This document shows, piece by piece, positions 2,730 to 18,760 of a stretch of 30,237 nucleotides of DNA. Numbering within the stretch: the first letter of the stretch is position 1; every line of letters begins with the position of its first letter. The notes beneath the pieces are model-generated. The model worked only from the letters and a program-made list of their open reading frames with translations. It did not search any database and was not told where the DNA came from. This stretch comes from a virus (lineage: Duplodnaviria > Heunggongvirae > Uroviricota > Caudoviricetes), in IMG/VR virus record IMGVR_UViG_3300044680_000064, positions 73,632-103,868 of that record. One strand, given 5' to 3'. The translations under genes were made by a program, and so were the position numbers.

Positions 2730-3947
2730 ATGGGCGTTCAACCGCAGCTTTGGATGGAACAGGTAGCCGGCAATTCGCCGTCATCGGCCGCTTTCTCATA
2801 CCAGGGAGGCGGTCGGTCGAGTCGCAATTATTTTATCGGTGACGATGGCACTGGCGTTCATGCACCTGTTACCAACTTCACGCAACTTCAAAACGCCTTA
2901 CTCACGCTGCTCGGCGATGTAACTCCAAATCTTGTTGATGGGACAAGTCTCAAGAGAACTCCGCCGCTTGCGGATCCAATGTATCCGTGGCTTTTTTGCG
3001 AGAGCGTCGGCTCGGTTCAAGGAATCGGCCATCCCGTTCAAGTGAATCCCGACCCGACTGGCTTGCTGGAAATTCCGCAGGTCGAGTACACGGCGCTTTA
3101 CCCGTGCTACAAATTCTCAGGGTGTCTCTTTGGAGCAAGGCCATACACTCTTCTCAACGATACCGCGGTGAATGGATTTGGCAGTCTGAGCGCCAATGGT
3201 ACGCCGTGGTACGATGAGACGTTCACGCTTCAAGAGCAGGACGCCTACGCAAACGAATGGATACGCTACGTCGATGTCGAGCACTCGCCATCAGGAGAGT
3301 TTCTCGTCGCGCAAGCCGGTCAGTTTATTTTCGATGTCGCTGGTGGATACTCGCCAAACGGAAAACCAGCTGGCAATGGTCAGCTTCGCATGTTCTTTCG
3401 AAAGGATGCACTGCGAATCACCTGGTACATGGTGCCGTACACGTTCATCAGCTCGCCGGACAGCTTCATCCTTGAAGGCATCGGCCACATAAATCAGAAT
3501 CCGTGGTGCGATTGGGACAAGGGCCAGCTGCTGCTTGAAGGCATTCAGATCGTTCGCTACACGCCGATAGTACCGCAAATGGCCCTTTGGCCGGTGGCGA
3601 CCAATGCTTATGCGAACAACAAGTATTGCAACATTTCATTTTTCATGACGCTAGTCAATCGACCGTTCGCGACGATCTCCGATGGCGGCGATGGAACCAG
3701 ACTGGCGATCCCGAATGATCCGGTGCTGCCGCCGTGGGCTGACGACGCGGCCGCAATCCAGATAGTCCAGAGACACCACAACCTCGTCCCATGGGGGCAT
3801 TGCCTCTACCAGTTCTTTTATGCGAAGCTCCAGAATATCGCCGATTACGAAGGCGCGCAGGGACTGCCGGTCTATCCGAGTTTTCCGTTCGAGCTGCTTT
3901 TCACGAATCCAGATGGCGACAGCCCAACTCCTGGGGGCACGCTGTAA
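2730..3947 (+). CDS. Putative tail protein (distal tail / hub position)
   Basis: 405-aa Pro/aromatic-rich, beta-type sequence directly after the tape-measure-like gene. The call rests on synteny only. Confidence 0.55.
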   Translation: MGVQPQLWMEQVAGNSPSSAAFSYQGGGRSSRNYFIGDDGTGVHAPVTNFTQLQNALLTLLGDVTPNLVDGTSLKRTPPLADPMYPWLFCESVGSVQGIGHPVQVNPDPTGLLEIPQVEYTALYPCYKFSGCLFGARPYTLLNDTAVNGFGSLSANGTPWYDETFTLQEQDAYANEWIRYVDVEHSPSGEFLVAQAGQFIFDVAGGYSPNGKPAGNGQLRMFFRKDALRITWYMVPYTFISSPDSFILEGIGHINQNPWCDWDKGQLLLEGIQIVRYTPIVPQMALWPVATNAYANNKYCNISFFMTLVNRPFATISDGGDGTRLAIPNDPVLPPWADDAAAIQIVQRHHNLVPWGHCLYQFFYAKLQNIADYEGAQGLPVYPSFPFELLFTNPDGDSPTPGGTL

Positions 3948-5056
3948 TGCGGATGACGCCGCTGGATCCGGTCAGGCAACCGAGCAGCGAAATCTTCGTC
4001 GCCCAGCTCACGTCTGCCGATACGTCCACTGACTATGACAGCGATCCATACGCTTATCCATCAAGCTGTCAAGCGTATTCTTGGATTGAGATGCGGCTCG
4101 ATCCAGGAAGTTGCGGATATGTCCCAAACGAGTGGGGCCGATTCGGAACTCCAGAGCAAAACCCAGTCTACACGCTCAATGGAGAGCTTCTCCAGACGCC
4201 CATCTTGGCTTATGTGAAATTGCGTGGCTGGATTCTTGGGCAGCAGGTCTACGACGTTGTCGGCGTCGTTGGTGAAACGACAACTCCATATTCGCAATAC
4301 TATGGCAGCCCGAATTGCTGCTCGGAATGTCAGACCATCCAAGCTGTCGTGACATGCTCGGCATCCAACGGCGACGGAACAACGACGAATCAGTTCACCC
4401 TGACTTGTTGGCCGTCCGGGCAAATTATTTTCAGCGGTTGCGTGACCGTTTCGAGCTGTCCGTGCAATCAATATTACTCGTCGCCGGGAATGCCGGGCTC
4501 ATGTTCGTGCGACCCGTCATGCAATGTGACGTCCTACGTTTTGTTTTTCCCGCACGGCGTGCCAGCGGATGGGACGTGCTTCAATTGCAATATGTTTTCG
4601 ACGACGTTCAATGAGGCAAGCGGCGCTACGCCAGGGTATTCTCAGTGGTGCCTTAACGAGCAGGCGACAACTCCATACGGGTGCGTGTACGAAGGCCAAG
4701 CGACTGGCGATTTGTGCGGCGACGTCAGCTTCTTTGTGGCCACGCTGACAATCAACGATGACGGCAGCGCCACGCTACTCATTGTGACGGAATCGCTCGG
4801 AACGACTATGCCGCAGGCGCAATACCACGTCAACAATTTTGCGTGCGGCCAATCGAATGCGTTGGGCTTGATTTACCAGATTTCTGGCAGGACGTCAGCA
4901 TGCAAGAACTGGCCAGAACTCGTCAATATTACCCCATGCTTCGATTGCGGATTCGATACGGCTATTCCGTTGAACTGTCCGCCTTCAGGCGGTGGCAGTG
5001 GCGGCACAAGCGGCATCAGCCCGAGCGGCGGTGGCCCTAGCGGCGGACCAATGTGA
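3947..5056 (+). CDS. Cysteine-rich putative tail/tip protein (369 aa)
   Basis: Start reassigned to ATG 3947 (TAATG overlap with the upstream stop). About 23 Cys by hand count (NCCSEC, SCPC, SCSCDPSC, TCFNC, PCFDC) and a Gly/Ser/Pro C-terminal tail. Confidence 0.7.
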   Translation: MRMTPLDPVRQPSSEIFVAQLTSADTSTDYDSDPYAYPSSCQAYSWIEMRLDPGSCGYVPNEWGRFGTPEQNPVYTLNGELLQTPILAYVKLRGWILGQQVYDVVGVVGETTTPYSQYYGSPNCCSECQTIQAVVTCSASNGDGTTTNQFTLTCWPSGQIIFSGCVTVSSCPCNQYYSSPGMPGSCSCDPSCNVTSYVLFFPHGVPADGTCFNCNMFSTTFNEASGATPGYSQWCLNEQATTPYGCVYEGQATGDLCGDVSFFVATLTINDDGSATLLIVTESLGTTMPQAQYHVNNFACGQSNALGLIYQISGRTSACKNWPELVNITPCFDCGFDTAIPLNCPPSGGGSGGTSGISPSGGGPSGGPM

Positions 5057-5073
5057 GATGATAGGATCACCAG

Positions 5074-6990
5074 ATGGCTTGTAATTCTCCGAACTGCAAA
5101 GAAGTCAAAGCGGCACACGAAGCCGTAATGCAGCAATCGCATACTAGCGAGACAAAGCACCTTCTCTACCATTGCTACCCGGTGCGCCCGAGTGGCGAAT
5201 GCTGGCGTTGGAATCTCGCGCAAATCAAGAAGCGTGAGTCACTGTTCGATGGCCTGAAGATTGTGTGTGTGGCTCAAGATGGGATGGCTGAAGACGTCAG
5301 TGTCGTCCAGAAGTTTCTCGGTTCGAACTTTATCGTCGTCGGTCGCAGAAACGACATTACTATCGCTGAAGTCCAGACTTGGTGGTTCGGTTGGAGTCAG
5401 TACCTTCTGCACAACTCCGGTCGTGTGTTCTATGCGCACGCCAAGGGCGTCAGCCATCCGTGGAAGACGGGCAGTCCAATCGCACGTTGGACAAATTTGA
5501 TGTACGAAACGTGTCTGGATTATTGGCCGATTGCCGAACGTCTCTTGAACGAGCATCCTGTCGCTGGCTCATTCTGCCTAAAAGGTCAGTGCTTTCCAAG
5601 CTCACGATTCTTCTACTCTGGCGCGTTCTTTTGGACCAATATCGACGCAGCTCGCGATACCTGGGCGATCATCGACCACCAGCGATGGGGAGTCGAAGCG
5701 TGGCCGGGGCGGCATTTCCCCAATCCGGGAGTGATCTTTAGCGAAAGTCCGATCAAGAATGGTCGTCATATCATCCTGTACGATCATCGGCACATTTTCG
5801 AGCAGGAGAAGAAAGCTCTTGAATGGCGAGAGCTGAATCAGAACGAAAAGATTGACTTCGCCGTCCAGCAATCGTCGGACAAGCCGATGCGGCCAAGTGC
5901 GCCGTTGCCGCCATGCGTCGAACTTGGTCACGCCAAGGGATCTCAGCAGCTCATCCAACTCGGGCTGGACCCGCTAAAGTGTGGCTGTGGCGGAAAAGTC
6001 CGCGCTTGCGGTATTCATGACAACTGCACGACAGAAACTCCATTCAAGGATTTCGCATGCTGTGCAACGTGCATGGACTACGACGATGGCAACGGAAAAG
6101 ACCCGGACCTCGCGACCGAGCCTATTTGTAATGAGACGAAGGCCAAGACCAATGCGACAGTTCATCGTCACCGCGCCGCACTTTACCGCCAGTTGCGAGC
6201 GCCGGCGCCGAAATACACTGGCCCGGACGATGGGTGCGGACTGATTCTTGCTGGCGGCGGAAGATACTGGCCAGGGACGGTCATCGCCGCAAAGATGTGG
6301 CGCAAGTTTACGAATCTGCCGATCGAAATTTGGAAGTACCTTCCCGGTCAGGACCACAATCCGAAAGACCTCGAAGGAGTGGAAGGCATCACGTATCGAG
6401 ACGCGGCCGAGTTTGAGCCGCGGCGAATGACGCTGTTCGAAATCAAGGCGCTCGCGCTCCAGCATGCCAAGTTCCGCTACGCATTCTGGCTGGATAGCGA
6501 CGGATGGCCCACGGCAGACCCATCGCCGCTTTTCGAACTGCTCAAGAAATACTCGTTTTTGTACTGGCGTGACATTGCCGAATACAAGGTTCGCGCGAAG
6601 TGGGAGATGGTCGGCGTTGACGGCTCGGAAAGAATTCCGCACGTTCAAGCCGGTCATTTGCTCTTTGATCGCAAGGCGTGCTGGAAGGAATTGTCGATCA
6701 TCCACTGGATGAATCAGCACAGCGACTTCTATTATTGGCCGCATATTTCCGGCGATCATGACCAATCCCTGTGGCGTGTCATCTGGACCGCGACGCAGAA
6801 TAGTTGGCGATGCCTCGGGAACGCTGTTTGGAAGTATCCAGCGTTCAGTTGCAAGTTCAAAGGCCAGACGATGTGCGTCCACCGCTGCGCTGGAGACGCA
6901 AAGATCATGGCCGGAAACAAGAGGCTGATGCCGGGCATTCATCCATACGAAAAAGAAGCCTGGGCAATCTTCGACGAGGTCACTAAATGA
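5074..6990 (+). CDS. Two-domain glycosyltransferase: N-terminal HxKG-type GT-like domain, Cys-rich linker, C-terminal GT71/Mnn2-like alpha-mannosyltransferase domain
   Basis: N domain: VFYAHAKGVSH, FYSGAFFW, RWGVEAWPG. Linker: CVELG..CGCGG..CGIHDNC..CCATC. C domain: GLILAGGG, LPIEIW, IKALAL, WLDSD (DxD), AGHLLFDRK, GDHDQ, VHRC, which follow the PF11051 motif order. Confidence 0.8.
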   Translation: MACNSPNCKEVKAAHEAVMQQSHTSETKHLLYHCYPVRPSGECWRWNLAQIKKRESLFDGLKIVCVAQDGMAEDVSVVQKFLGSNFIVVGRRNDITIAEVQTWWFGWSQYLLHNSGRVFYAHAKGVSHPWKTGSPIARWTNLMYETCLDYWPIAERLLNEHPVAGSFCLKGQCFPSSRFFYSGAFFWTNIDAARDTWAIIDHQRWGVEAWPGRHFPNPGVIFSESPIKNGRHIILYDHRHIFEQEKKALEWRELNQNEKIDFAVQQSSDKPMRPSAPLPPCVELGHAKGSQQLIQLGLDPLKCGCGGKVRACGIHDNCTTETPFKDFACCATCMDYDDGNGKDPDLATEPICNETKAKTNATVHRHRAALYRQLRAPAPKYTGPDDGCGLILAGGGRYWPGTVIAAKMWRKFTNLPIEIWKYLPGQDHNPKDLEGVEGITYRDAAEFEPRRMTLFEIKALALQHAKFRYAFWLDSDGWPTADPSPLFELLKKYSFLYWRDIAEYKVRAKWEMVGVDGSERIPHVQAGHLLFDRKACWKELSIIHWMNQHSDFYYWPHISGDHDQSLWRVIWTATQNSWRCLGNAVWKYPAFSCKFKGQTMCVHRCAGDAKIMAGNKRLMPGIHPYEKEAWAIFDEVTK

Positions 6991-7322
6991 GCCAATATCC
7001 ACACATGCGCGTCGTGTGCGTATGCCACGGCGGCAACGTTCGCTCGGTCGGACTAGCGAGGATTCTCAAGCACGGCGACTTCGGCAACCACGACGCGGTA
7101 GCCATCGGCTGCACGACCGCAGGGCGGACGGTCAAGGAACTTCTATTCTCATGGGCCGATCGCATCGTGTGCATGCAGCCGGTAATGCGCGAGACCATTC
7201 CCGAGCGGTATCTGCCCAAGGTCCGGATTTGCGACGTCGGCGAAGATGTCTATGGATATCCGACGCATCCGGATTTGATGAAAAAGTGCAACGAGTGGCT
7301 GCAAGTCGATGGGCTGTCTTGA
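6987..7322 (+). CDS. Low-molecular-weight protein tyrosine phosphatase-like protein
   Basis: N-terminal P-loop VCVCHGGNVRS (C-X5-R-S at 7023-7046), plus WADRIVCM and EDVYG (general-acid DPY equivalent). ATGA overlap with the GT gene. Confidence 0.8.
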   Translation: MSQYPHMRVVCVCHGGNVRSVGLARILKHGDFGNHDAVAIGCTTAGRTVKELLFSWADRIVCMQPVMRETIPERYLPKVRICDVGEDVYGYPTHPDLMKKCNEWLQVDGLS

Positions 7323-7435
7323 TGCTTCAAGCCTGAAACAAGTCAAATCCTGCTTTGCCTCTCAATCCGCTCGTTTTGAGCCTATGAAGATAGACCAAAA
7401 CGCACGCGGATTCTCTGTCTTTTGAGGCTACTCTC

Positions 7436-7696
7436 ATGGCCGGTGGACCAATCGGGCCAAGCTCCGTTTACCTCGGCGGCGAATCAATTAAAACCGCTAT
7501 GGCCGAGTGCACCTGCGCGTGCCACAAGAGGGGCGAAGAATTTAGATTCCTTCATTTCCTGCCATGCTGCGAAGGATGCTGTGAACACTGCAAGAAATGG
7601 TTTAAGTCGGGACTTTGCGCCCATCGAGAATCATGCGGCGAAAAACCCGAAGACGACACGTTGCGATTCGAGAACGGCGTGCCGGTGGTGAGTTAA
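7436..7696 (+). CDS. Small Cys/His-rich protein
   Basis: GAGG 8 nt before ATG; CTCACH, CCEGCCEHC and CAHRESC motifs; TAA directly abuts the next ATG. Confidence 0.55.
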   Translation: MAGGPIGPSSVYLGGESIKTAMAECTCACHKRGEEFRFLHFLPCCEGCCEHCKKWFKSGLCAHRESCGEKPEDDTLRFENGVPVVS

Positions 7697-9313
7697 ATGT
7701 CTGGACCATCTACCTCAGTGAATCCCGTTCTCTGGCACGACTTCAGCACTGGAGTCTACCAAGATAGCGGCACGTCTACGCCATGCACAGACGGCACCGC
7801 ACTTCAGCACATAGTTGACCAGAGCGGCAACGGCAACGACGGCCAGCAGGCTACGTCAGGGAATCGTCCAACTTGGCACAGCAACCCGTTCGGCTCGTTG
7901 ATGGGAGTGAATCAGGCCGGCGCATCGTTTAACGCCAGTAACAGCCAATACCTGCTTCACCCTTACAACGTCGCCAACGGCATCACGCTCTTTGTAATCG
8001 GCATGTGTCAAGGCACTGGCGACATGGCATGGATGGGGCTGGAGGCGTCGTCGGGAAACCTCGCTCCGTACTACTTTAAACCAAGCAACTCGGCCAGCCT
8101 CAATTCCGCAGTTGGTGAAGCCGGTGGGACGACTCTCTACGGCGGTCGAAACACCAACATCATGTTCATGCAGTTGGTGACGATCAGCAACAACACCGTG
8201 ACGCTCTGGCAAAATGGCGTCCAGGTCGCGAGCGCGTCATTCAGTGGCCAAGCATCGCCGGGAAGCAACGGATTCGTTGGTGCTAGCTATTACGGCGGGA
8301 ATCCAGTTGACTTTTTGACCGGGATTATCCGGCACCTGTTCATATTCCCGCAAGTCCTTGGGTCAATCGACATCGCGGCCTGCTTCAGTTGGGGGCGGTC
8401 ATACCTTCCGCCCGCGCCATCGCTCTCAGGTGTGAGCTACATCGGCGCTTTCTTCGATTCAACGAATGAAGTTTTGGTCATGGGCACGAGTTCGGACGGG
8501 ATCAACTTCCAGCAGTACCCGATTTCGTACGTGCCGAGCGGGATCAATTCTGGTTCGGTTGGTGCAACGACGCGTGATCCGCGAATCATCCAGAATTACA
8601 CAACGAAGACGGTCTGGAATCTCGCTCACACTTCCATCAGCTTGAGCACCGGGTTGCAAAGTGGCATGGCCCAGACGACGGACTTCGCTTACTGGACTTC
8701 GCTACCAAACCTCGATTGGTCTGACGTGACGGGCAGCCCGAATCAGGCATGGGCTCCGAATCTCTACGTCGATGGGAGCGGAAACACTTGGGTTTATTGT
8801 GCGGTCGGGAATTCGAGCGGGCCGACGCATGCGATTTGGTACAAGGAATTCACGGCAGCCGATTTGTCGTCAGCCGGTTCATCGACCGAGACTTCGATCA
8901 CGTCAGCGCCGACGAATATCATCGACCCGTTCCTGCTTCTTTACAGCGGCACGTACTATCTATTCTTCGCCAACAACACAGGCGGGTATGTTGGATATGC
9001 AAGCTGCTCAACGCAGAATGGCACGTACACCGTTGGCGTGAGCGGAGCTTCCAACACGCTCGGCCTTGGAGCGGCTGAAGGTCCGTTCTTTGTGACAGTT
9101 GGCAGCAATCTAACGATTTACGTTGATGCGACGGGCGCCGCACATCTCGAATATTCGCAGCCGAGCGGCGGACCAACCGGAACGTATCCGACGCCATCGA
9201 ACGTCAACCTGACCGCGTATGGCGGTGGATCGCTGACGCCAAGACATGGGACAATTATCAATTATTCAGCTGCTACCAGTCAAGGAACCGCTTCGCTTTG
9301 GCTTGTTGGCTAA
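7697..9313 (+). CDS. LamG/concanavalin-A-like domain fused to GH43-like five-bladed beta-propeller (putative receptor-binding / glycan-degrading virion protein)
   Basis: N half: DQSGNGN..Q.TSGNRP, TLWQNGVQV, FLTGIIRHLFIF. C half: RDPRII, WAPNLY, IIDPFL..GTYYLFF, EGPF, giving the three acidic positions of GH43-like propellers. Confidence 0.75.
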   Translation: MSGPSTSVNPVLWHDFSTGVYQDSGTSTPCTDGTALQHIVDQSGNGNDGQQATSGNRPTWHSNPFGSLMGVNQAGASFNASNSQYLLHPYNVANGITLFVIGMCQGTGDMAWMGLEASSGNLAPYYFKPSNSASLNSAVGEAGGTTLYGGRNTNIMFMQLVTISNNTVTLWQNGVQVASASFSGQASPGSNGFVGASYYGGNPVDFLTGIIRHLFIFPQVLGSIDIAACFSWGRSYLPPAPSLSGVSYIGAFFDSTNEVLVMGTSSDGINFQQYPISYVPSGINSGSVGATTRDPRIIQNYTTKTVWNLAHTSISLSTGLQSGMAQTTDFAYWTSLPNLDWSDVTGSPNQAWAPNLYVDGSGNTWVYCAVGNSSGPTHAIWYKEFTAADLSSAGSSTETSITSAPTNIIDPFLLLYSGTYYLFFANNTGGYVGYASCSTQNGTYTVGVSGASNTLGLGAAEGPFFVTVGSNLTIYVDATGAAHLEYSQPSGGPTGTYPTPSNVNLTAYGGGSLTPRHGTIINYSAATSQGTASLWLVG

Positions 9314-9316
9314 ATT

Positions 9317-12205
9317 ATGCTAAATCGAATCTCACCAGCTGTCGCCATTTCCGCAGGGACTCAACAAGTCTCTAGCGGTAGTCTGATATTCTCTAATTCC
9401 AATGGCGTATCGTTCGGGATCAACGGTAATACTCTGACGGCCAGCGCCGCCGGTGGCGGAGGCGGCGCATTCACGGGCGGAATGTCCACATTTGGGAACA
9501 CGCTCGGAAACACGGGCCTTGTCACGGGCCAACTTGTCCTCGTCGGAACGAACAATATCACGCTATCGGGATCGACCAATGGCGGGAGCATGACGATTTC
9601 GTTCTCTGGCGGCGCTGGTGCGGCCGGGAACACCGGATACATTTCAGCCGGCACTCTCACGGCCAGTCTCGGCACGGTAGTCTTCAGCAATAGCGGCGGC
9701 GTTAGTTTTGGCATCAATGGCCAGACCGTCACGGCTACGGTTGCGACAAATTACCTAACCACCGCTGACCTATCGCAGAATAGCAGCAAGTACATTCAGG
9801 CGTGGGATCTGACTGGTAATACAGCCGGAACAACATCGTCGGCCCAAGGTACTGCGCTGTGGTTATCGGGCGGCAATAGCATTACGGTCTCTGGAAACAG
9901 CAACACAATCGTCTTCTCGGTCGGGAACTACCTGACAACGGCCGATCTTTCGCAGAATAGTTCGAAGTATGCCGGCATCAATGGCGCGATCACGGGCGGC
10001 AGCATCACGGTCAATACATCTGGCGTCTCGGTGGCCTTGCCCGCTTATCTGACGACGGCGATGCAGAGCAACGCCACAACGATCTCGAATATCAACGTCA
10101 GTGCCGGAACGACGAGCCAGAATCTGTCCGCACTGGTATTCTCGAACTCGAACAACTTCAGTTTTGGTCTGAACGGTTCGACGATCACGGGCAGTTACAC
10201 AGTCCCAACGCAAACGAATCAGTCTGGGAACGTTTACGCATCGTCGAACACCTTTGGAACATCGTCTGGAACTTATGATGCACGCTCGCTGTCTATCGCG
10301 GGAAGCGGGGCTGTCTCTGTTGCAGCCAGCAATTCCGGTTGGGTAATCAGCGCGCCGACGCAAACGAACGATACTGGCAAGGTCTATGCGTCGTCCAATA
10401 CATTCGGCACGTCTAGCGGGACGTTCGATGTACGAACGTTGTCGATTGCCGGCAGCGGTGCCGTTAGCGTCGCTGCAAGTAATTCGGGATGGGTTATTTC
10501 GGCTCCGACGCAAACGGCCCAAACACAGAATTGCGTCGATCTTAGCCTTTCTGGCAACAGCACCTCGGCCGGCGCTGGCTACATCCTGATTTCGTCAGGC
10601 ACAGCTGTTCTTGCTGGCGGAAACAACATCACGCTGTCTCAGAATGGGCAGTCCATTACCATCTCTGGTGCCAACGCTGCCGGTGCCCAAACGGGTATCA
10701 GTGGCATCGCAGACTCGGCCCATACGCAGACTGTTGGCACTCTTTCGTTCGCCAATAGCAATGGCGTGACGTTCGGCCTTTCCACTGGCGCGAACACCGG
10801 CACGCTGACCGCCAGCGTCGCCGCGCAGACGAATCAGACGGGCGGAGTTTATGCCAGTTCCAACACGTTCGGGACATCTAGCGGCACTTACGACGCCCGC
10901 TCAATCTCGATCGCCGGAAGCGGAAATGTTTCAATCGCGGCTAGCAATTCCGGCTGGGTGGTGAGCGTTCCGAATCAGACCAATCAAACTGGCAATGTGT
11001 ATGCCAGTTCGAATACGTTCGGCACGAGCAGCGGGACGTATGACGCGAGGAGCCTGTCAATTGCTGGCTCTGGCGCCGTGTCCGTGGCGGCATCGAACTC
11101 TGGTTTCGTCATCAGCGCTCCGGTGCAGACCAATCAAAGCGTCGGTCTTTACGCCCTTGGCAACACGACCCAGAACAGTTCGACAACTCTGGATGCGCGT
11201 TCGCTTAGTTACAACGCGATCGGTGCTATGTCGTGGGGCTATTCCAACGGGTCCATTCAAGCATCCGTGCCGGCGACCTCCAGCCTGTCGGCTACCGGCT
11301 GGGCGTCAATCAGTGTCAACGGCTCAACGATCAGCATTGGCGCCTCGACAACGGCGAGCCTGTACGCTGTCGGCAACACCACAAACAACACGACGCAATC
11401 GCAGGATATCCGCACGGTCTCGTTCGCTGGCTTGGGCCAGGTCAGCGTCGGATTCAGCGGCGGTACGATGCAAGTGTCTGGACCGGCATTACTCTCGGCC
11501 TTTGAGCCGCTGCAACTCCAGACGAACACGAGCGTCAGCAGCTTCGCGACGAACTCGTACATCTTCCAGAAGATTCTGATTCCAGACCCGCTCGCGTGCA
11601 GCAAAATCAATGTCTTGAAGTCGCTCAACGCGGCCGTCGGCGCGAACGTCACAACGAAGACATTTAATCTGACCTACTTCCACGGTCTGACGCTCTTCTC
11701 GCGTCAGGATTATACGAACAATTCGAGTAATCTGTCGAGCTTTGCCTCGGCCAGTTTTGGTATCAGCCACACGTTCAGCTACAGCAGCTTGTCAGGCTCG
11801 GCAACCGTGGCATGGGCGACCAATTCGGCTGGCGGCACAAGCAGCGCCAGCTTCACAGATTCGATCATCTCGGGCATGACCAGCTATCTGACCGGCCTGA
11901 AGTTCGCCCAGATACCCTTCGTGGCAACGCTGACGAGCCCAGAAATCTGGATCGCGCACAACGAATCGTCGAGCACGAGCGGCAGCCCGCCCTGCGTCAG
12001 CGTGTCGTTCAGCGACGTTTACATGACTCCACTTGTGTCCACCATCGGGGCGTGGTCAAATAGTGGAAGCGACACAGCCAGAAATCCGCAGGGCGAAGGC
12101 TTCGGCAACGCGTCGGCGACAGCGAACACGATGCCGTTCTCGAATATCTCCGCGGCGACGCAGGCTTTCATTTACCACAACTACTCGAATGTGCTGGTGA
12201 CATGA
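9317..12205 (+). CDS. Ser/Thr/Gly/Asn-rich repetitive fibre / adhesin-like protein (962 aa)
   Basis: Very few charged residues, three internal repeat families and a non-repetitive C-terminal region of about 240 aa. Confidence 0.8.
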   Translation: MLNRISPAVAISAGTQQVSSGSLIFSNSNGVSFGINGNTLTASAAGGGGGAFTGGMSTFGNTLGNTGLVTGQLVLVGTNNITLSGSTNGGSMTISFSGGAGAAGNTGYISAGTLTASLGTVVFSNSGGVSFGINGQTVTATVATNYLTTADLSQNSSKYIQAWDLTGNTAGTTSSAQGTALWLSGGNSITVSGNSNTIVFSVGNYLTTADLSQNSSKYAGINGAITGGSITVNTSGVSVALPAYLTTAMQSNATTISNINVSAGTTSQNLSALVFSNSNNFSFGLNGSTITGSYTVPTQTNQSGNVYASSNTFGTSSGTYDARSLSIAGSGAVSVAASNSGWVISAPTQTNDTGKVYASSNTFGTSSGTFDVRTLSIAGSGAVSVAASNSGWVISAPTQTAQTQNCVDLSLSGNSTSAGAGYILISSGTAVLAGGNNITLSQNGQSITISGANAAGAQTGISGIADSAHTQTVGTLSFANSNGVTFGLSTGANTGTLTASVAAQTNQTGGVYASSNTFGTSSGTYDARSISIAGSGNVSIAASNSGWVVSVPNQTNQTGNVYASSNTFGTSSGTYDARSLSIAGSGAVSVAASNSGFVISAPVQTNQSVGLYALGNTTQNSSTTLDARSLSYNAIGAMSWGYSNGSIQASVPATSSLSATGWASISVNGSTISIGASTTASLYAVGNTTNNTTQSQDIRTVSFAGLGQVSVGFSGGTMQVSGPALLSAFEPLQLQTNTSVSSFATNSYIFQKILIPDPLACSKINVLKSLNAAVGANVTTKTFNLTYFHGLTLFSRQDYTNNSSNLSSFASASFGISHTFSYSSLSGSATVAWATNSAGGTSSASFTDSIISGMTSYLTGLKFAQIPFVATLTSPEIWIAHNESSSTSGSPPCVSVSFSDVYMTPLVSTIGAWSNSGSDTARNPQGEGFGNASATANTMPFSNISAATQAFIYHNYSNVLVT
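10208..11122 (+). repeat. 50-aa (150-nt) coding repeats, four clear copies in two tandem pairs
   Basis: Units start at 10208, 10358, 10823 and 10973 with consensus xQTNQxGxVYASSNTFGTSSGTYDARSLSIAGSGAVSVAASNSGWVISAP. Two more degenerate copies follow 11123. Confidence 0.92.
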
Positions 12206-12924
12206 CGACGCAGCAGTTGATCGTGCAGGACATGGGAGGGTTCCATAATGCGAATCTCGAAGCGACACGCGCGCGACTTATCCGCGGCGGATCGTACAAG
12301 AAGCAGCGTGTCATTCTCATCATCCCGGCCATCAAGCCAATACCGCCCAAGGTGTATCTTTCGCACTGCTCGCTAATTTTCCCGCCTAATCAGCCGGTCG
12401 TCAGAATTTTGGCCGAAGGAATGGAGGTGGGAGATTCCTACAGTCAGGCCATCGCGAACGTGTTGTCGCATCCATACCTTTCTGAATTTGAGTACATTTG
12501 TACGATCGAGGCAGATAATTGCCCGCCCAATGATGGCGTCTTGAAGTTAATAGAGAGAATGGAAAATCATCCGGAAATGTCCGCGATTTCCGGTTTGTAC
12601 TATACAAAATTTTGCGGCGGCGTGGCCCAGATTTGGGGATCTCCACAGCAAGACCCAGTATTCAATTGTCGGCCACAGCTACCAGTGCCAGGCGAGTTGG
12701 TCGAAGCATACGGAATTGGCATGGGCTTCGCCCTATGGCGCACTTCCATGTTCAAAGATGCGCGCCTGCCGCGACCTTGGTTTAAGACGAATGCGAGCAA
12801 AAATGGTGTGGGAACTCAAGACCTGCACTTCGCATCCGAAATTCGTAAATTCGGCTACAGGCTTGGTGTCGATTGCGATGTCAAAGTAGGTCACTACGAT
12901 TTTGAAAATGACATGATGTGGTAG
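12202..12924 (+). CDS. Glycosyltransferase family 2-like (GT-A fold)
   Basis: EYICTIEADNCPP (DxD-like), AISGLYYTK, GIGMGFALW, PRPWF, TQDLHF, VDCDVKVGH. Confidence 0.82.
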   Translation: MTTQQLIVQDMGGFHNANLEATRARLIRGGSYKKQRVILIIPAIKPIPPKVYLSHCSLIFPPNQPVVRILAEGMEVGDSYSQAIANVLSHPYLSEFEYICTIEADNCPPNDGVLKLIERMENHPEMSAISGLYYTKFCGGVAQIWGSPQQDPVFNCRPQLPVPGELVEAYGIGMGFALWRTSMFKDARLPRPWFKTNASKNGVGTQDLHFASEIRKFGYRLGVDCDVKVGHYDFENDMMW

Positions 12925-12955
12925 AATGGTAATAGCCAACACATACGAGGTTGCT

Positions 12956-13438
12956 ATGCCATCTTCATCAGCCATCAGAAGTCGTAAGTATCGAGCGAAA
13001 GATGTAGACGCTTACAGGAAAAATAAACGCGAGTATGCTAGGACTCCAGAGCAGCGCGCTAAACGCAACGCCTACATGGCTATCTGGAGAGAGAGAAACC
13101 GAGAAAAACACAATCGTCAAGCGAGAGAATCACACGCCAGAAACTCGCACAAGCATAAGCAGAAACGCAAAGATCACGCTCTCAAGGTGTCTTACGGTCT
13201 TACGCGAGACGATTACAATGCAATGCTCGCTTCTCAAGATGGGGTATGCTTTATCTGCCGACTCGCCGAGAGAGCCAAGAAGACTGGGCAGACGCCGCGA
13301 AATCTGGCCGTTGACCATTGCCACGCAACCGGAAAGATTCGTGGTCTACTCTGCACAAAATGCAATGGTAATCTAGGCTGGTTCGAAAAGTTCAAGGATT
13401 CAATACTGAGATATTTGGATAGGACCATAGCTACATGA
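12956..13438 (+). CDS. Endonuclease VII-type HNH endonuclease (free-standing, homing-like)
   Basis: YGLT..Y..ML..Q.GVCFIC, LAVDHCHATGKIRGLLCTKCN. GAGG precedes ATG 12956; an alternative start is at 12926. The N-terminus is basic. Confidence 0.9.
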   Translation: MPSSSAIRSRKYRAKDVDAYRKNKREYARTPEQRAKRNAYMAIWRERNREKHNRQARESHARNSHKHKQKRKDHALKVSYGLTRDDYNAMLASQDGVCFICRLAERAKKTGQTPRNLAVDHCHATGKIRGLLCTKCNGNLGWFEKFKDSILRYLDRTIAT

Positions 13439-14220
13439 CCGCGACTCTCGAAGAGACAAGACCATTCGCCTCTGTCTTCTGCCGTCATTGTGGCGAAGGC
13501 TTCCTTCGCGCCGACTTGGCGGGCGACCATGAGGCAAAGTGCATAGGCATACAAGCCGCCGATGGCCGATGCGCGAGCTGCGGCTTGTTTATTTATCCGG
13601 ACGGTCTCTATGCGGGGCTTTTGCACGGCGAACCATGCCGATGCAATGTGAAACCGATTCTGAAACTTGACATCGGATGTGGCGGTAACAAGCGGCAGGA
13701 CAATGGCCCGTGGATTGGCGTCGATTGCTTGCAGATGATTGGCGTTGATGTTGTTGCCGATCTGCGAGAGACGTGGCCCTGGGAAGACGGCTCCGTGACG
13801 GAGATACACGCTTCGCATGTTCTGGAGCATTTTGGCTCGATGCAGCGCGTACATATCGCCAACGAGATGTACCGGGTGCTCATGCCTGGCGGCAAGGCGA
13901 CGGTGATCGTGCCTCATTGGGCGAGCTGTCGCGCCTACGGCGATCCGACGCATCAATGGCCACCCTGCGGAGAATTTTGGTTCTACTATCTTTCGCGTGA
14001 GTGGCGTCTCGGGAATGCCGACAAGAAGATTCCAGCCAACGCGCCGCACACGGACGCGAAATATCTCGAAGGCGGTTTCAACTGCGATTTCGAGGCGACG
14101 TGGGGCTACACGCCGCATCCGCACTGGCAAACGCGATCGGCCGAAGCGCAGCAGTTCGCTTTCCAGTTCAACAAGGAAGCGATTCAGGACATGATAAGTA
14201 CGTGGACGGCCCGGAAGTGA
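13435..14220 (+). CDS. Class I SAM-dependent methyltransferase with N-terminal Cys/His zinc-binding motifs
   Basis: LKLDIGCGG motif I, DVVADLRETWPWEDGSVTEIHASHVLEH and RVLMPGG. N-terminal CRHC..H..C and CASC..H..CRC. Confidence 0.85.
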   Translation: MTATLEETRPFASVFCRHCGEGFLRADLAGDHEAKCIGIQAADGRCASCGLFIYPDGLYAGLLHGEPCRCNVKPILKLDIGCGGNKRQDNGPWIGVDCLQMIGVDVVADLRETWPWEDGSVTEIHASHVLEHFGSMQRVHIANEMYRVLMPGGKATVIVPHWASCRAYGDPTHQWPPCGEFWFYYLSREWRLGNADKKIPANAPHTDAKYLEGGFNCDFEATWGYTPHPHWQTRSAEAQQFAFQFNKEAIQDMISTWTARK

Positions 14221-14221
14221 C

Positions 14222-14578
14222 ATGCCGAACCAGATTCAAGTATCGACAACCACCGGCAGCACGATCTACGCCCTGGTCCGCAATGCGGCCTCGCTGATTT
14301 GGAACGGCTCTGGATTCGAGACATACGAGACGGCGAATTACGCCAACTACCCGCTCTCGATGACCGAACAAGGATCACACAGCGGCTATTACGCTGGCCC
14401 GTTCCCGATCGTGATACCAGGCGAGTACGAAATTGTGATGAAGGCGCAGTCGGGCGGTTCGCCAGCCGAGACGGACCAGAGCGCCGGGAATCAGACGGTG
14501 GTGTGGGACGGCACGCAGTTTGGCCTTGTCGGTCTTGAGAATGGCGGCATCGCGTACATCGGACCAAGTTTGTCATGA
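14222..14578 (+). CDS. Putative virion protein, paralogue of 14575-15291
   Basis: 73 of the first 105 residues are identical, without gaps, to the next ORF (hand alignment). Confidence 0.8.
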   Translation: MPNQIQVSTTTGSTIYALVRNAASLIWNGSGFETYETANYANYPLSMTEQGSHSGYYAGPFPIVIPGEYEIVMKAQSGGSPAETDQSAGNQTVVWDGTQFGLVGLENGGIAYIGPSLS

Positions 14579-15291
14579 GCGATCAAATCCAAGTTGACGG
14601 TTTGACAGGCCAGACGGTCTACTCTCTCGTGCGCAATGCGCTGGGCGCGATCTGGAATGGCACGGCGTTCGTCACCTACGTCACTGCCAACTACGCGACG
14701 TACCCAATTGCAATGACCGAGCAGGGCTCGCATTCAGGCTATTACGCCGGCACGTTCCCCACTGTCGCCGCGGGTGAATACGAGGTCGTGGCGAAGCAGC
14801 AGGCCGGCGGCAGCCCGGCGGAGACTGACGCGACGGTTGGCAACGGAACCATCGTCTGGGACGGGACACAGTTCTCGCTCGTCGGTCTGTTGCAAAACAC
14901 AATCAATTGTTCCGGCCCGGTCGATCCGATCACGGGCAACGTCACGATCATCGGCGGCGATGCGTACACGGCGGCAAACGGCAGACCGTTGCTTTGGAAC
15001 GCTCCCGTAGGGAATGGAATACCAGACCTAACTGGCGCCACTCTGGTCGCGAATTTCTACAAGTCGAAGTTGCTTGTCAATCCGACGATTGTCGGGACCG
15101 CGACGGCGCTCAATGCGGGCGGTTCAAGCCAGCAAGTTCAGCTGTCTTTGCAACCGGACGACTCAGCTGCGGTAATCGGCTGCACTCTGCTCGCGATCGT
15201 CGCTTATGACTCGTCGTTGACAACGTGGACGGTGATAAGACAGTCAACGACTATTCTTGAACCGAGCAACCTTGGCGTGCCACGGATATGA
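14575..15291 (+). CDS. Putative virion protein, paralogous N domain plus a C-terminal extension of about 130 aa
   Basis: ATGA overlap; shares MTEQGSHSGYYAG and GGSPAETD with the upstream ORF. Confidence 0.8.
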   Translation: MSDQIQVDGLTGQTVYSLVRNALGAIWNGTAFVTYVTANYATYPIAMTEQGSHSGYYAGTFPTVAAGEYEVVAKQQAGGSPAETDATVGNGTIVWDGTQFSLVGLLQNTINCSGPVDPITGNVTIIGGDAYTAANGRPLLWNAPVGNGIPDLTGATLVANFYKSKLLVNPTIVGTATALNAGGSSQQVQLSLQPDDSAAVIGCTLLAIVAYDSSLTTWTVIRQSTTILEPSNLGVPRI

Positions 15292-15294
15292 AAG

Positions 15295-15660
15295 ATGACC
15301 GTCAGCCGATTGTACTTCAGAAAAGGTAAGCTAGTCCAGCTTCGGGCGATTGATCTTGTCGGCTTGAAGACGCTTAGAGATGCAGACGGCTGGCGGCTTG
15401 TGACATCATCCAACATCAAGGCGCTACGGTGGAGACCGCCATTTGAAGGAGATAACGGCCGCTCTGGTCTCGGTGTGTGGTTTGCTCCGACGAATGCGGA
15501 TGGAAAGCCAAGCGGCAAGGAAACGATTTACTGGCTTTCTGGAGTTCCGTTCGACGAATACGCCAAGATGCTGACATCGGCCAGTAAAGGGAAATTCTAC
15601 TATTACTTCGTGCGTCCACGGTGGCCAGTAACTGCTGGCCCACTAGAAATAGGCGACTAA
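15295..15660 (+). CDS. KTSC domain protein
   Basis: VTSSNI...LGVWF...YWLSGVPFDEYAKMLTSASKGKFYYYFVR fits the KTSC pattern SS.I...L.V.F...Y.Y..VP...Y..L..A.SKG.F. Confidence 0.75.
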   Translation: MTVSRLYFRKGKLVQLRAIDLVGLKTLRDADGWRLVTSSNIKALRWRPPFEGDNGRSGLGVWFAPTNADGKPSGKETIYWLSGVPFDEYAKMLTSASKGKFYYYFVRPRWPVTAGPLEIGD

Positions 15661-15674
15661 CTCAAGGGTGAAAT

Positions 15675-16343
15675 ATGAATCGCGTCAAACAATCGTGCCT
15701 CAACCTCTTCGACGCGACCGGCGCTGCTGTCGGTGGCACGTCTCTTAGCGGGTTGCAGTTCCCAGGCTCGAATACTGTCGCGCCGACGGTTGAGAATCGC
15801 AGCCAGATTCTGCCGCTGTCAGGCGGCTACGTCTTCCCGATCAGCAATGCGACTCCAGCCGTGTGCGGCGGCGTTGTTTCTGTCGGTCAGGACTGGGGCG
15901 ACATTTTGCTCGACTTCTTGGCAACCGGCACGGGTAACTTAGTCGTTGAAATCGGCAAGATCAGCGCCGTGCTGCCGGCCGCTTCGCCGCCTTCATTTGG
16001 CTTGGCCGAACCGCTGGCCAAGTTGACTCTGTCGCCATCGGCGACAAGCGCACCTGCCAATCTTGATCCTTACACGTTGACGACGATTGCTTCGACGACG
16101 TTTTCGTTCTTCGACGCGACCACGCGCACGACTTTGTATGGCAACAACGAACAAGTCACGCTGTCGGCGAACGGCGGCTCCGCGAACGGGTTCCCGGTCC
16201 AGGTCCGCGTCAACACAACTGAAGGTCTTTTCTATTACGTGCTAATCTTGGCACTGAACAGTCTCACCCGAGTCCGCTGCAACTTCCGTCCCGTCCCATC
16301 CAGCGGCAGCTTTATCAATGGCGTCGTAAAATCTGAGACATGA
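15675..16343 (+). CDS. Hypothetical protein, probably structural (low charge, beta-rich)
   Basis: AAGGG-type RBS and 222-aa ORF; no motif recognised. Confidence 0.65.
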   Translation: MNRVKQSCLNLFDATGAAVGGTSLSGLQFPGSNTVAPTVENRSQILPLSGGYVFPISNATPAVCGGVVSVGQDWGDILLDFLATGTGNLVVEIGKISAVLPAASPPSFGLAEPLAKLTLSPSATSAPANLDPYTLTTIASTTFSFFDATTRTTLYGNNEQVTLSANGGSANGFPVQVRVNTTEGLFYYVLILALNSLTRVRCNFRPVPSSGSFINGVVKSET

Positions 16344-16364
16344 GAAATCAGAGATAGGACCATC

Positions 16365-16556
16365 ATGTCACAGCCGCGCGTCAACTACGCGCGCTGCCAA
16401 TGGTGCAGCGCGCGTCTTTCTTTCATCGGGATATTCGAATGCACCATCCCCAAGACTGGCGAGCGCGAAGATATGAAGATTCTTCAATGCGAGAAGTGCT
16501 TGCGAGGCGTGATCGTCAGGCCGGAAGACGTTGCGGTTGATTCGAGACGGGGATAG
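16365..16556 (+). CDS. Small zinc-ribbon protein
   Basis: AGGA RBS; CQWC and CEKC pairs. Confidence 0.6.
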   Translation: MSQPRVNYARCQWCSARLSFIGIFECTIPKTGEREDMKILQCEKCLRGVIVRPEDVAVDSRRG

Positions 16557-17085
16557 TTGACGGCCAGAACTTCGGATCATCGAACCAGACGACCATCTCG
16601 CTTTGATCCTTGATCTTAAACTCAACCCACTTCACAAAAATGCCTGCCACGAATCTGGCGTTGTCGTCGGGAATGACTTTGGCCGCAACCAATAAATCTT
16701 CTACGGCCTTAGTTCTGTTTCCGACATCCGCTTGCGGATCCCAATCGAGGCCGGGGTAAAGCAGCATGCACACGAGAACTGGATAGCTCGGTGGCGATGG
16801 CATGCCAAGAGCTATCGGAATCATCGAATCTCGCCACGCCTTGTATTCAGGAGTTATCCCGCGGCCTTTCCCTTTCTGGCCGGTCTTGCGGTTGTAGAAG
16901 AGCGAGTTCGAGCTGGGCGGCAGCTTGATCGTGATCGGCACTCGAAACATGGAAGGAATGCACGTCTCGCCATCCATGCGGCACGAAGCCGCGGCCTCAC
17001 CGACTATCGAGAATCGTCCTTCCGACGCCAGCTTGCGCAGCCCGTCCATCGTGCTCGGATGCTTCGTGATCTTCGGACGTCCCAT
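16516..17085 (-). CDS. rusA: RusA-like Holliday junction resolvase
   Basis: LPPSSN, YKAWR, DVGNRTKAVEDLL and IPDDN follow the RusA pattern PPS.N / D.DN..K...D.L / DD. Confidence 0.8.
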   Translation of the reverse strand: MGRPKITKHPSTMDGLRKLASEGRFSIVGEAAASCRMDGETCIPSMFRVPITIKLPPSSNSLFYNRKTGQKGKGRGITPEYKAWRDSMIPIALGMPSPPSYPVLVCMLLYPGLDWDPQADVGNRTKAVEDLLVAAKVIPDDNARFVAGIFVKWVEFKIKDQSEMVVWFDDPKFWPSTIPVSNQPQRLPA

Positions 17086-17761: not shown

Positions 17762-18760
17762 TTACACGAACATATTCGGCGTGACAAGGCTGATTCTCTT
17801 TTTCGACAGAGCGACTTGTGATTCGCGAAGGTCGCATGCTATACCGCGACGGCCATTCTCAATTGCCACGGCGACCGCTGTTCCGGAGCCAGAATGAGGA
17901 TCACAAACAATGCCGTCTGGAGGACAAAAAGATTGGATGAAGAAATTGGCCAAAGACTCCGGGAACGGGGCTTCATTCTCGTGGCACAATTCATTTCCCA
18001 TGACGCCGCCGCCAACGATGCAGCGTACTATCTCTGACTTGGCATCGTCGGCAATGTTGCACGAAATGAGAAGTTGGCGGACTTCGGCAAGCGTGTACGT
18101 CGTCTTGATTTCGTTGCCAGGATTCGCCTTCGCTGGCGGATCGTATCCCATAAACGCTTCTGGCTGCGGATTGTTCACAATATCTCGATCATGAGTTCCT
18201 TTGACCGAGCCATCATCAGCGTGCCGGAAGTTCTTTCTCTTTCCAGACGCGCTACGATTACTCATCTCTCCGCCTGGTGCGTATTTAGGCTTGCGCCCCA
18301 TCGCCGTATTGTTGCTCCAAGGAAACTTTCCTCCTGGTCCGGCGCAGATAATCCATTCATAGTCGTTACGAAGCCAGTCTGGACCGCCGCTGCCAGGAAT
18401 TCCGACCCGGCAGAAGAAAGGCGGTTTTCGTAGATGAACGCCACGCCGATGGAGATCAGCCATGAGTAGCGCTGGACTCGCGCTGTAGCGAAAATTCCGG
18501 GTCTGCCCTTCGACCACCCACGCCACGAGCCCGCGGCAGATGCGCAAGCATTCCACAAATCGTTCGACGCACCAATCAACCCACTCTTGATCCTTGAGCT
18601 TAAAATCAAGTTCAGCATACAAACGTGCTGATTCGTATGGCGGAGACGTGAGCACCATATCAACGCATTTGGCTGGAAGAGACTTCAACCAGACAAGATT
18701 GTTATCTTGTTCGACTGACCAGCGTGCCGAGCCATTCAGAACATCATGTGCTGTGCTCAT
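17762..18760 (-). CDS. DNA amino-methyltransferase, beta class (probably N4-cytosine)
   Basis: Catalytic motif IV LTSPPY near the N-terminus and SAM-binding motif I CDPHSGSGT near the C-terminus, plus RRGIACDL. Confidence 0.9.
   Translation of the reverse strand: MSTAHDVLNGSARWSVEQDNNLVWLKSLPAKCVDMVLTSPPYESARLYAELDFKLKDQEWVDWCVERFVECLRICRGLVAWVVEGQTRNFRYSASPALLMADLHRRGVHLRKPPFFCRVGIPGSGGPDWLRNDYEWIICAGPGGKFPWSNNTAMGRKPKYAPGGEMSNRSASGKRKNFRHADDGSVKGTHDRDIVNNPQPEAFMGYDPPAKANPGNEIKTTYTLAEVRQLLISCNIADDAKSEIVRCIVGGGVMGNELCHENEAPFPESLANFFIQSFCPPDGIVCDPHSGSGTAVAVAIENGRRGIACDLRESQVALSKKRISLVTPNMFV

Follow-up and report, generated by a model that had tools for sequence, protein, structure and literature searches.

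A run of closely spaced genes that encodes, among other proteins, a repetitive Ser/Thr/Gly/Asn-rich fibre, a glycosyltransferase (GT) and an S-adenosylmethionine (SAM) methyltransferase lies at positions 5074 to 14220 of a 30,237-nucleotide stretch of DNA (hereafter, the window; positions 73,632 to 103,868 of IMG/VR record IMGVR_UViG_3300044680_000064) from a virus assigned to Caudoviricetes. The window covers the final 30 kb of one viral contig of 103,868 bp, which is recorded as linear and approximately 71% complete (CheckV-type estimate), and has a GC content of 52-60%. An original prediction, made from the letters of the window, took the whole 9-kb run for one cassette in which several GTs are wrapped around the fibre, and proposed that it either places a methylated, mannose-containing glycan on the fibre or remodels the host surface. 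Comparison with related loci revises this picture: the conserved core consists of the fibre, one GT of 240 amino acids (aa) and the methyltransferase, and the 9-kb run is not one cassette. The genes of the core, and an insertion that interrupts it, are as follows.

9317 to 12205, + strand: repeat fibre, 962 aa, characterized by composition, repeats and fold; the proposed acceptor
12202 to 12924, + strand: GT-A-fold glycosyltransferase, 240 aa; core enzyme 1, with an ATGA overlap with the fibre gene
12926 to 13438, + strand: Endonuclease VII/HNH homing endonuclease, 170 aa (Pfam 5.5e-20; phrog_2914 8.3e-29)
13435 to 14220, + strand: class-I SAM methyltransferase, 261 aa; core enzyme 2 (Methyltransf_11)

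The open reading frames (ORFs) of the 9-kb run, at the coordinates listed here and below, adjoin by 4-nt overlaps or 0-3 nt gaps, with a single larger gap of 113 nt (7323-7435). The run had been described as one coupled unit; the coupling holds everywhere except at this gap, and the unity does not, as three of the genes are absent from all 32 loci examined. The ATGA overlap suggests that the 240-aa GT is translationally coupled to the fibre gene.

Conservation and mobility of the three-gene core

A total of 32 loci were compared, namely 27 found through the 240-aa GT (11 from IMG/VR, nine on contigs of metagenome-assembled genomes (MAGs), six from exact-protein look-ups and one GenBank record) and five found through relatives of the fibre; near-duplicates among them (L004/L005, L008-L010 and L022/L023) leave approximately 25 independent observations. 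The methyltransferase gene lies 3' of the GT gene in 25 of the 27 GT-found loci, i.e., in all that have enough downstream DNA, the other two being cut inside the GT gene or having just 0.8 kb of downstream sequence. The repeat part of the fibre was detected 5' of the GT gene in 20 of these 27 loci; the remainder mostly carry a short or partial Ser/Thr/Gly/Asn-rich ORF at that spot, with none found in L017. What looked like a fusion of GT and methyltransferase in one ORF of L017 was discarded, as the two matches lie in different frames with a 33-nt overlap. In the reverse direction, all five independent loci found from fibre relatives and provided with DNA carry both enzymes 0-7 kb downstream, with 59-62% identity in the GT family and 43-54% identity in the methyltransferase family. 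Independent assortment of GT genes and fibre had been named as an outcome that would count against a joint system; instead, the 240-aa GT and the methyltransferase accompany the repeat fibre in nearly every locus in both search directions. A hidden Markov model (HMM) of the 32-aa fibre unit described below matched, among 2453 ORFs from the loci and the whole genome and with one exception, the ORF 5' of the GT gene; the same restriction was seen among 496 further ORFs, and other Ser/Thr/Gly/Asn-rich ORFs were unmatched.

The core occupies different places in different phages. It lies between a P22-type portal gene and a capsid gene in L001-L005, between a Phage_portal gene and protease/HK97 capsid genes in L022/L023 and L024, after a lambda-type portal gene (Phage_portal_2) in L025, and after tail genes in both L021 and the phage studied here, on contigs that range from approximately 42 kb to approximately 450 kb (448 kb). 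Within the 10-kb flanks of L021, L024 and L025, matches to the genome studied here are limited to genes of the module. Identity of the 240-aa GT across loci is 49-66% (median 61%), and the MAG loci are binned to at least five phyla. The three genes are thus shown to co-occur and to travel as a block among tailed phages that are otherwise unrelated.

The repeat fibre

Ser, Thr, Gly and Asn make up 51% of the fibre and charged residues 4%. Its sequence is built from a 32-aa unit (core FSNSNGVSFG) in approximately six copies and from near-identical 50-aa units in at least four. The Ser/Thr/Gly/Asn dominance and the hand count of about 35 N-x-S/T sequons reported previously proved accurate, with exactly 35 sites of the form N-x(not P)-S/T. 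Composition-matched shuffles contain 24.9 +/- 4.0 such sites (z approximately 2.4-2.5, p approximately 0.01), local shuffles agree, and the sequon excess of the fibre is marginal. Across 32 members of the fibre family the mean z is 2.2, versus -0.5 for the reversed pattern; this asymmetry arises because the repeat text is conserved (Q-T-N-Q-T, G-N-T-T-Q-N-S-S), and the copies are not independent. The enrichment over shuffles that the original prediction had proposed to look for exists, and consists mostly of repeated copies of one unit. No protein of the 9-kb run had a Pfam or fold match to either of the two known N-glycosyltransferase families, and the sequon argument for glycosylation is weak. 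Relatives of the fibre number at least 2078 at E <= 1e-10, nearly all of them without a name.

In the AlphaFold2 monomer, the repeats form isolated beta-hairpins with a predicted local distance difference test score (pLDDT) of approximately 40, which would be expected from a multimeric shaft modelled as a single chain and is no evidence of disorder. A C-terminal knob (residues ~735-962) is modelled as a beta-sandwich with pLDDT of 70-84 over residues ~735-905, outside of which the fibre fold is unreliable. The best structural match of the knob (VIA) is a chain of the mycobacteriophage Bxb1 tail tip (Z 10.0, root mean square deviation 4.1, 170 residues aligned), followed by a chain of the cyanophage A4 capsid unit (Z 9.1) and by lectin-like or carbohydrate-binding modules (CBMs; Z 5-7.6). 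Fold matches of the fibre in BFVD, with template modelling (TM) scores <= 0.2, were set aside. The knob is variable among loci, matching in one of 29 (L024).

The two enzymes and the junction between them

The 240-aa GT has a GT-A fold (AlphaFold2 pLDDT 85.7, predicted TM score 0.82). A Foldseek search against PDB gave 301 matches at E <= 0.001, those listed being without exception GT-A enzymes or nucleotidyltransferases; the top solved match is A197 of Sulfolobus turreted icosahedral virus (STIV; E 1.5e-10), with the LH3 GT domain, mimivirus R699 and SpsA further down. Matched AFDB clusters bear the name glycosyltransferase, and several entries among the fold-cluster relatives are named methyltransferase-domain proteins. 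In an alignment of 32 sequences, E103, D105, N106 and H231 are invariant; the E-x-D-N stretch aligns with T-D-D-N of SpsA, giving an acidic motif E-x-D instead of D-x-D. The protein had been called a GT2 enzyme. Its score against Pfam Glycos_transf_2 (PF00535) is 12.5 bits, below the cut-off of 23.3 bits, with 18.5 bits for the L001 relative, and we therefore describe it as having a GT-A fold and not as a member of PF00535. At least 1324 protein clusters (90% clustering) are related to it; the best 120 of these relatives are 60-69% identical, and none of the 120 has a recorded Pfam domain or functional name. A tblastn search of 50,697 phage records (E <= 1e-5) returned only three identical uncultured records, with no cultured phage and no actinobacteriophage among the matches. 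No membrane segment was found in the GT, the methyltransferase or the other proteins of the 9-kb run. The GT gene also contains a palindrome with a perfect 8-bp stem (CCGGAAAT...ATTTCCGG; window 12571-12593), which has a terminator-like score on both strands.

The assignment of the second enzyme as a SAM methyltransferase was borne out, as it matches Methyltransf_11 above the Pfam cut-off (9.7e-7; 29.8 bits against 21.2). Among 16 sequences of its family, the SAM-binding stretch LDIGCGG is conserved and 18 residues are invariant. The conserved part begins at approximately residue 72, and an in-frame GTG at 13648 would yield a protein of normal length; the first 71 codons (13435-13647) encode a Cys/His-rich extension (CxxC...HxxxC, CxxC...CxC) that is absent in 15 aligned relatives and that may be either a leftover of the endonuclease insertion or a true zinc-binding addition.

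The endonuclease gene, which the original prediction had overlooked, is a selfish insertion that splits the enzyme pair and lies outside the module and outside any glycan system. Most loci lack an endonuclease at the GT-methyltransferase junction. An Endonuclease VII copy with 50% identity occupies the same junction in one locus (L028:8714-9187), and other loci carry there a GIY-YIG endonuclease (L007:10678-11463), an HNH_3 endonuclease (L016:10239-10793) or a NUMOD3 protein (L021:10743-11528); in L014 (10633-12373), the junction holds a class-A-type beta-lactamase-family gene and an IS200-like transposase. The junction is thus a repeated landing site for mobile genes, including homing endonucleases of different families, and provides a natural example of homing between conserved genes.

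Accessory genes and genomic setting

The other features of the 9-kb run and of its downstream side are as follows.

5074 to 6990, + strand: two-domain accessory protein, 638 aa; N-domain 1-267, Cys-rich linker, C-domain ~306-636
6987 to 7322, + strand: ORF resembling low-molecular-weight protein tyrosine phosphatase (LMW-PTP) or ArsC, 111 aa; C-x5-R-S motif and Atlas fold
7436 to 7696, + strand: Cys-rich ORF, 86 aa with 10 Cys, described from sequence
7697 to 9313, + strand: LamG/propeller tail protein, 538 aa; sub-cut-off Pfam matches and a phrog 'tail protein' match at 9.5e-6
14222 to 15291, + strand: two ORFs of 118 aa and 238 aa with a common N-terminal domain of ~110 aa
16387 to 16415, + strand: strongest terminator-like hairpin, 11 pairs of which 9 are G-C; closes the late operon that holds the module

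None of the 32 loci holds a relative of the 638-aa GT, the phosphatase-like ORF or the LamG/propeller gene; these three are lineage-specific and stand outside the conserved core. Three GT domains had been claimed for the run; two are supported, namely the GT-A enzyme of the core and the C-domain of the 638-aa protein, and the third, the proposed HxKG-type N-domain of the same protein, is a lead from the ESM-Atlas. The C-domain alone scores 22.4 bits against Mannosyl_trans3 (PF11051; GT71-like, in line with the earlier GT71/Mnn2-like label) at a cut-off of 22; all 36 of its aligned relatives fall in that family (best 7.3e-27), the LDADA motif is present, and weak PDB profile matches include MNT2 and a Skp1 galactosyltransferase. 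The mannose that the original prediction had placed in the glycan derives solely from the name of this family and is not retained here. For the N-domain (1-267), there is no Pfam or PDB sequence match and hhalign gives no profile similarity between its family and that of the 240-aa GT; the Atlas model resembles RgpF and GT clusters (TM 0.54-0.68) and, by features, DUF8361 (0.97). The two domains were aligned separately, a joint MAFFT alignment having been dropped for misaligned N-domain rows; of 2584 relatives of either domain, none of the best 150 holds both. No relatives were found in the phage and IMG/VR collections by tblastn or pattern scans with the 638-aa protein or by megablast with the 9-kb run. 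The 638-aa protein contains 23 Cys, including a linker at ~285-345 that is conserved among relatives of the C-domain, which is unusual for a cytoplasmic phage protein. An unusual Cys content for such a protein is also seen in a 421-aa ORF at 3791-5056 (24 Cys).

The phosphatase previously proposed at 6987-7322 has a P-loop C-H-G-G-N-V-R-S at residues 13-20, which fits C-x5-R-(S/T), and Atlas matches to LMWPc clusters (TM 0.72-0.81; features 0.91), whereas the LMWPc HMM (PF01451) gave no match at E <= 10 in a six-frame search of the genome and none for this ORF in hmmscan. Similarly, the 538-aa protein, earlier labelled LamG-GH43-like, has LamG and GH43 matches that both fall below cut-off (23.4 versus 32.2 bits for GH43) and no PDB sequence match, and the Atlas features (0.93-0.95) agree with LamG plus a GH43 or sialidase propeller; it is a candidate receptor-binding or glycan-cutting protein.

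In L024, the methyltransferase gene is followed by a domain 48-50% identical to that of the 118- and 238-aa ORFs (L024:14936-15964), and a relative of the Cys-rich 86-aa ORF also lies downstream of the module there (L024:16491-16649); these ORFs may be optional extras of the module. The terminase of L024, a 103,794-bp JGI contig, bears faint Pfam marks of an intein. The claim that GTs are wrapped around the fibre fails for the 638-aa GT and survives in another form, since non-orthologous extra GT or methyltransferase genes adjoin the core in at least four other loci: an unrelated GT9+GT34-like protein in L021, genes of GT4-like and GT2-like type in L025, three genes annotated as GTs plus another methyltransferase in MW202524.1 (L031) and, in L029 (a 57-kb phage contig, positions 7534-16633), a set comprising an RMNT_CmcI gene (rhamnosyl O-methyltransferase family) between fibre and GT, three more methyltransferases and a B12-binding radical-SAM enzyme, a combination that suggests a far more complex modification there. 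Enzymes around the fibre are thus a recurring theme assembled from interchangeable parts.

The late structural operon (+ strand) starts before the window and ends at the hairpin listed above, beyond which lie converging minus-strand genes for a DNA methylase, a sigma-like factor and RecT; the N6/N4 DNA methylase, at 17762-18760, is separate from the module. On the 5' side of the 9-kb run are a protease-like ORF, a 422-aa protein that has matches to tape-measure proteins and two ORFs without assignment, and a head-tail-adaptor-like ORF lies 5 kb ahead of the window start; because tape-measure and head-tail-adaptor-like genes lie upstream, the run is placed at the far end of the operon's tail section. 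The GTCGTA(G/T)AAT promoter motif of the genome is not enriched in the window (four one-mismatch matches, a number reached by 12 of 100 shuffles), and sigma-70-like and terminator-like sites in the window are at chance level. HMMs for Epimerase, Phage_capsid and Phage_portal had no match in the genome, the record of which is approximately 71% complete, and hence no phage-encoded nucleotide-sugar step is seen in this part of it. Two more endonuclease genes lie in the structural region just 5' of the window (genome 66409-67029 and 70465-71760, both on the - strand; L030:10409-11029 and L030:14465-15760 in locus numbering), one of them Endonuclease VII/HNH-like, and homing endonucleases look unusually abundant in this genome.

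Proposed function of the module

The reading that we favour, at somewhat below an even chance, is that the GT and the methyltransferase modify the phage's own fibre with a methylated sugar. In the cytoplasm of the infected cell, the GT would move a sugar from the host nucleotide-sugar pool to Ser/Thr (or Asn) residues of the fibre repeats, before or during assembly, and the methyltransferase would cap this sugar by O-methylation; in this phage, the accessory two-domain GT (5074-6990) might extend or diversify the glycan. The product would be a glycan-coated fibre, perhaps shielded from proteases or host lectins, or tuned in its adhesion. Since the GT keeps approximately 61% identity across loci that differ in knob and in binned host, the acceptor is most likely the conserved repeats and not the receptor-binding end or a host glycan. 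Judged from invariant residues and the SAM motif, both enzymes look catalytically intact, and the absence of membrane segments predicts that both are soluble. A capping role for the methyltransferase is suggested by the pairing of such enzymes with GTs in mycobacteriophages, by the methyltransferase-named fold relatives of the GT and by the RMNT_CmcI gene of L029. Taken together, soluble enzymes, a position in the late operon and linkage to the fibre fit modification of a phage protein better than host-surface conversion of the Gtr type.

A number of observations weigh against fibre glycosylation. Sequons are only marginally in excess, and Asn-x-Ser/Thr makes ordinary beta-turns as well; fibres rich in Ser, Thr, Gly and Asn are common without glycosylation, and the repeats are modelled too poorly (pLDDT ~40) to show whether their Ser/Thr residues are exposed. 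On the enzyme side, a GT-A fold leaves the acceptor unrevealed, the PDB profile matches of the methyltransferase are to generic methyltransferases only and give no substrate, and no cultured phage among the 50,697 records carries the GT. In L017, and possibly in L005 and L020, the two enzyme genes stand together with no repeat fibre detected, and gene linkage does not separate modification of the fibre from modification of the fibre's ligand.

This last point leads to the most serious of the alternatives, in which the GT, the methyltransferase and the accessory GT would change a glycan of the host envelope or that glycan's precursor in the cytoplasm, either masking the receptor or keeping progeny off debris, with the fibre linked to them as the binder of that glycan. 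A lectin/CBM-like beta-sandwich at the end of the fibre and an adjoining LamG/propeller tail protein of glycosidase-like appearance would suit such a role, and in P22 the gtrABC conversion genes adjoin the tailspike gene. Phage GTs are also known to shift the host serotype (PMC12619734). Yet the enzymes here are soluble, neither a flippase nor a membrane GT accompanies them, the module is found within late structural operons, on phage contigs of approximately 42-450 kb, and not at prophage ends, and a GT that stays approximately 61% identical while both knob and host phyla vary is hard to square with a host-specific acceptor; we consider host-surface remodelling unlikely. It is quite improbable that the enzymes act on another virion component, such as the capsid or the tail tube, with the fibre an unmodified passenger of the mobile block. 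The known precedent does involve capsid and tail-tube proteins (PMC11600133; PMC12619734), and the block sits between portal and capsid genes at many loci, but the head and tail genes near it come from unrelated families across loci, and the repeat fibre is the only conserved candidate acceptor that travels with the enzymes. A role without any protein-bound glycan (action on a small molecule, DNA hypermodification, sugar-free protein methylation or service as non-catalytic fibre assembly factors) receives the least credence of all from us. It would accommodate a methyltransferase that resembles only generic class-I enzymes, and both a host-dependent methylation of a phage tail protein (PMC13445384) and viral GTs able to hypermodify DNA (cited in PMC12619734) are on record; the invariance of catalytic-type residues in both enzymes argues against dead scaffolds, and the position in a structural operon, the link to the fibre and the presence of the separate N6/N4 DNA methylase argue against a DNA role.

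Fibre glycosylation is, in our view, a reasonable and directly testable proposal that the gene content and its linkage suggest. A more far-reaching version of it, which is possible although we hold it with some doubt, is that the 240-aa GT is the founder of an unannotated family of protein GTs that has the beta-hairpin repeat fibre as its dedicated acceptor and that forms, together with the methyltransferase, a self-contained module for virion glycosylation that would be the most widespread of its kind in tailed phages and could fit into head or tail operons. If the conserved N-Q-T/N-T-T sites of the repeats are the acceptors, the GT would be a new kind of cytoplasmic N-glycosyltransferase. 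To our knowledge, glycosylation of virions by phage-encoded enzymes has been shown only in a few actinobacteriophages. If fibre glycosylation is correct, phage glycoproteins would be common, as thousands of proteins from uncultured phages of many environments would be involved, and two large protein families that are now without functional annotation would gain names. A glycan coat on fibres bears on host recognition, on particle stability and, if such phages are used, on immune recognition. With three genes, the module itself is smaller than previously supposed, and its distribution is far wider.

Comparison with known systems

We found no description of a fibre-GT-methyltransferase module in the literature, and the comparisons that can be drawn are with systems that share part of its arrangement or chemistry. 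Gtr-type O-antigen conversion in P22 and SfV places a GT gene beside the tailspike or fibre gene and depends on a flippase together with two membrane GTs, one acting on bactoprenol and one serotype-specific; the module differs in that Gtr systems require membrane proteins, whereas none of the proteins here has a membrane segment. The same genetic logic as in the module is found in the bacterial pairs TibC/TibA, Aah/AIDA-I and HMW1C/HMW1, in which a repeat-rich, beta-structured adhesin is encoded beside a soluble cytoplasmic enzyme that glycosylates its repeats. The likeness is one of gene arrangement, as these enzymes are heptosyltransferases or GT41 N-glycosyltransferases, not GT-A enzymes, and have no methyltransferase. 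In chlorovirus PBCV-1, A064R combines two rhamnosyltransferase domains with a methyltransferase domain and acts on the capsid glycan; as is proposed for the module, a virus-encoded cytoplasmic GT and methyltransferase yield a methylated virion glycan, although in that case the virus is a eukaryotic giant virus, the glycan is N-linked to the major capsid protein and the domains are fused.

The fold search points to further GT-A enzymes. The closest solved structure, STIV A197 (PDB 2c0n), is likewise a small soluble viral GT-A enzyme (TM 0.58 by query and 0.72 by target) and the capsid protein of STIV is glycosylated; by contrast with the module, STIV is an archaeal virus, the match is at the level of fold only (14% identity), and we know of no linked methyltransferase or fibre. 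The LH3 GT domain, ColGalT1 and mimivirus R699, which rank next (11-16% identity), are GT-A enzymes, and the solved LH3/ColGalT1 entries represent collagen lysine-linked glycosylation, i.e., addition of a sugar to a repetitive structural protein. Collagen GTs differ in that their acceptor is hydroxylysine in Gly-X-Y repeats, whereas neither a hydroxylase nor a collagen repeat is present here.

In terms of function, the nearest system is virion glycosylation in actinobacteriophages (Che8, Corndog, Myrna and cluster O), where soluble phage GTs cluster with an O-methyltransferase (PMC11600133; PMC12619734), much as a GT and a methyltransferase do in the module. In cluster O mycobacteriophages, three GT genes lie 3' of an O-methyltransferase gene and the enzymes modify capsid and tail-tube proteins (PMC11600133, citing Freeman et al. 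2023). The acceptors in actinobacteriophages are the C-termini of capsid and tail-tube subunits, and no single substrate gene is bound to the enzymes; in the module, by contrast, a single GT-A enzyme and a methyltransferase form a mobile unit with a repeat fibre dedicated to them. Because no related GT of a cultured phage was found among the 50,697 records and because the candidate substrate gene lies within the unit, we regard the module as an analogue, and not as a member, of the actinobacteriophage lineage.

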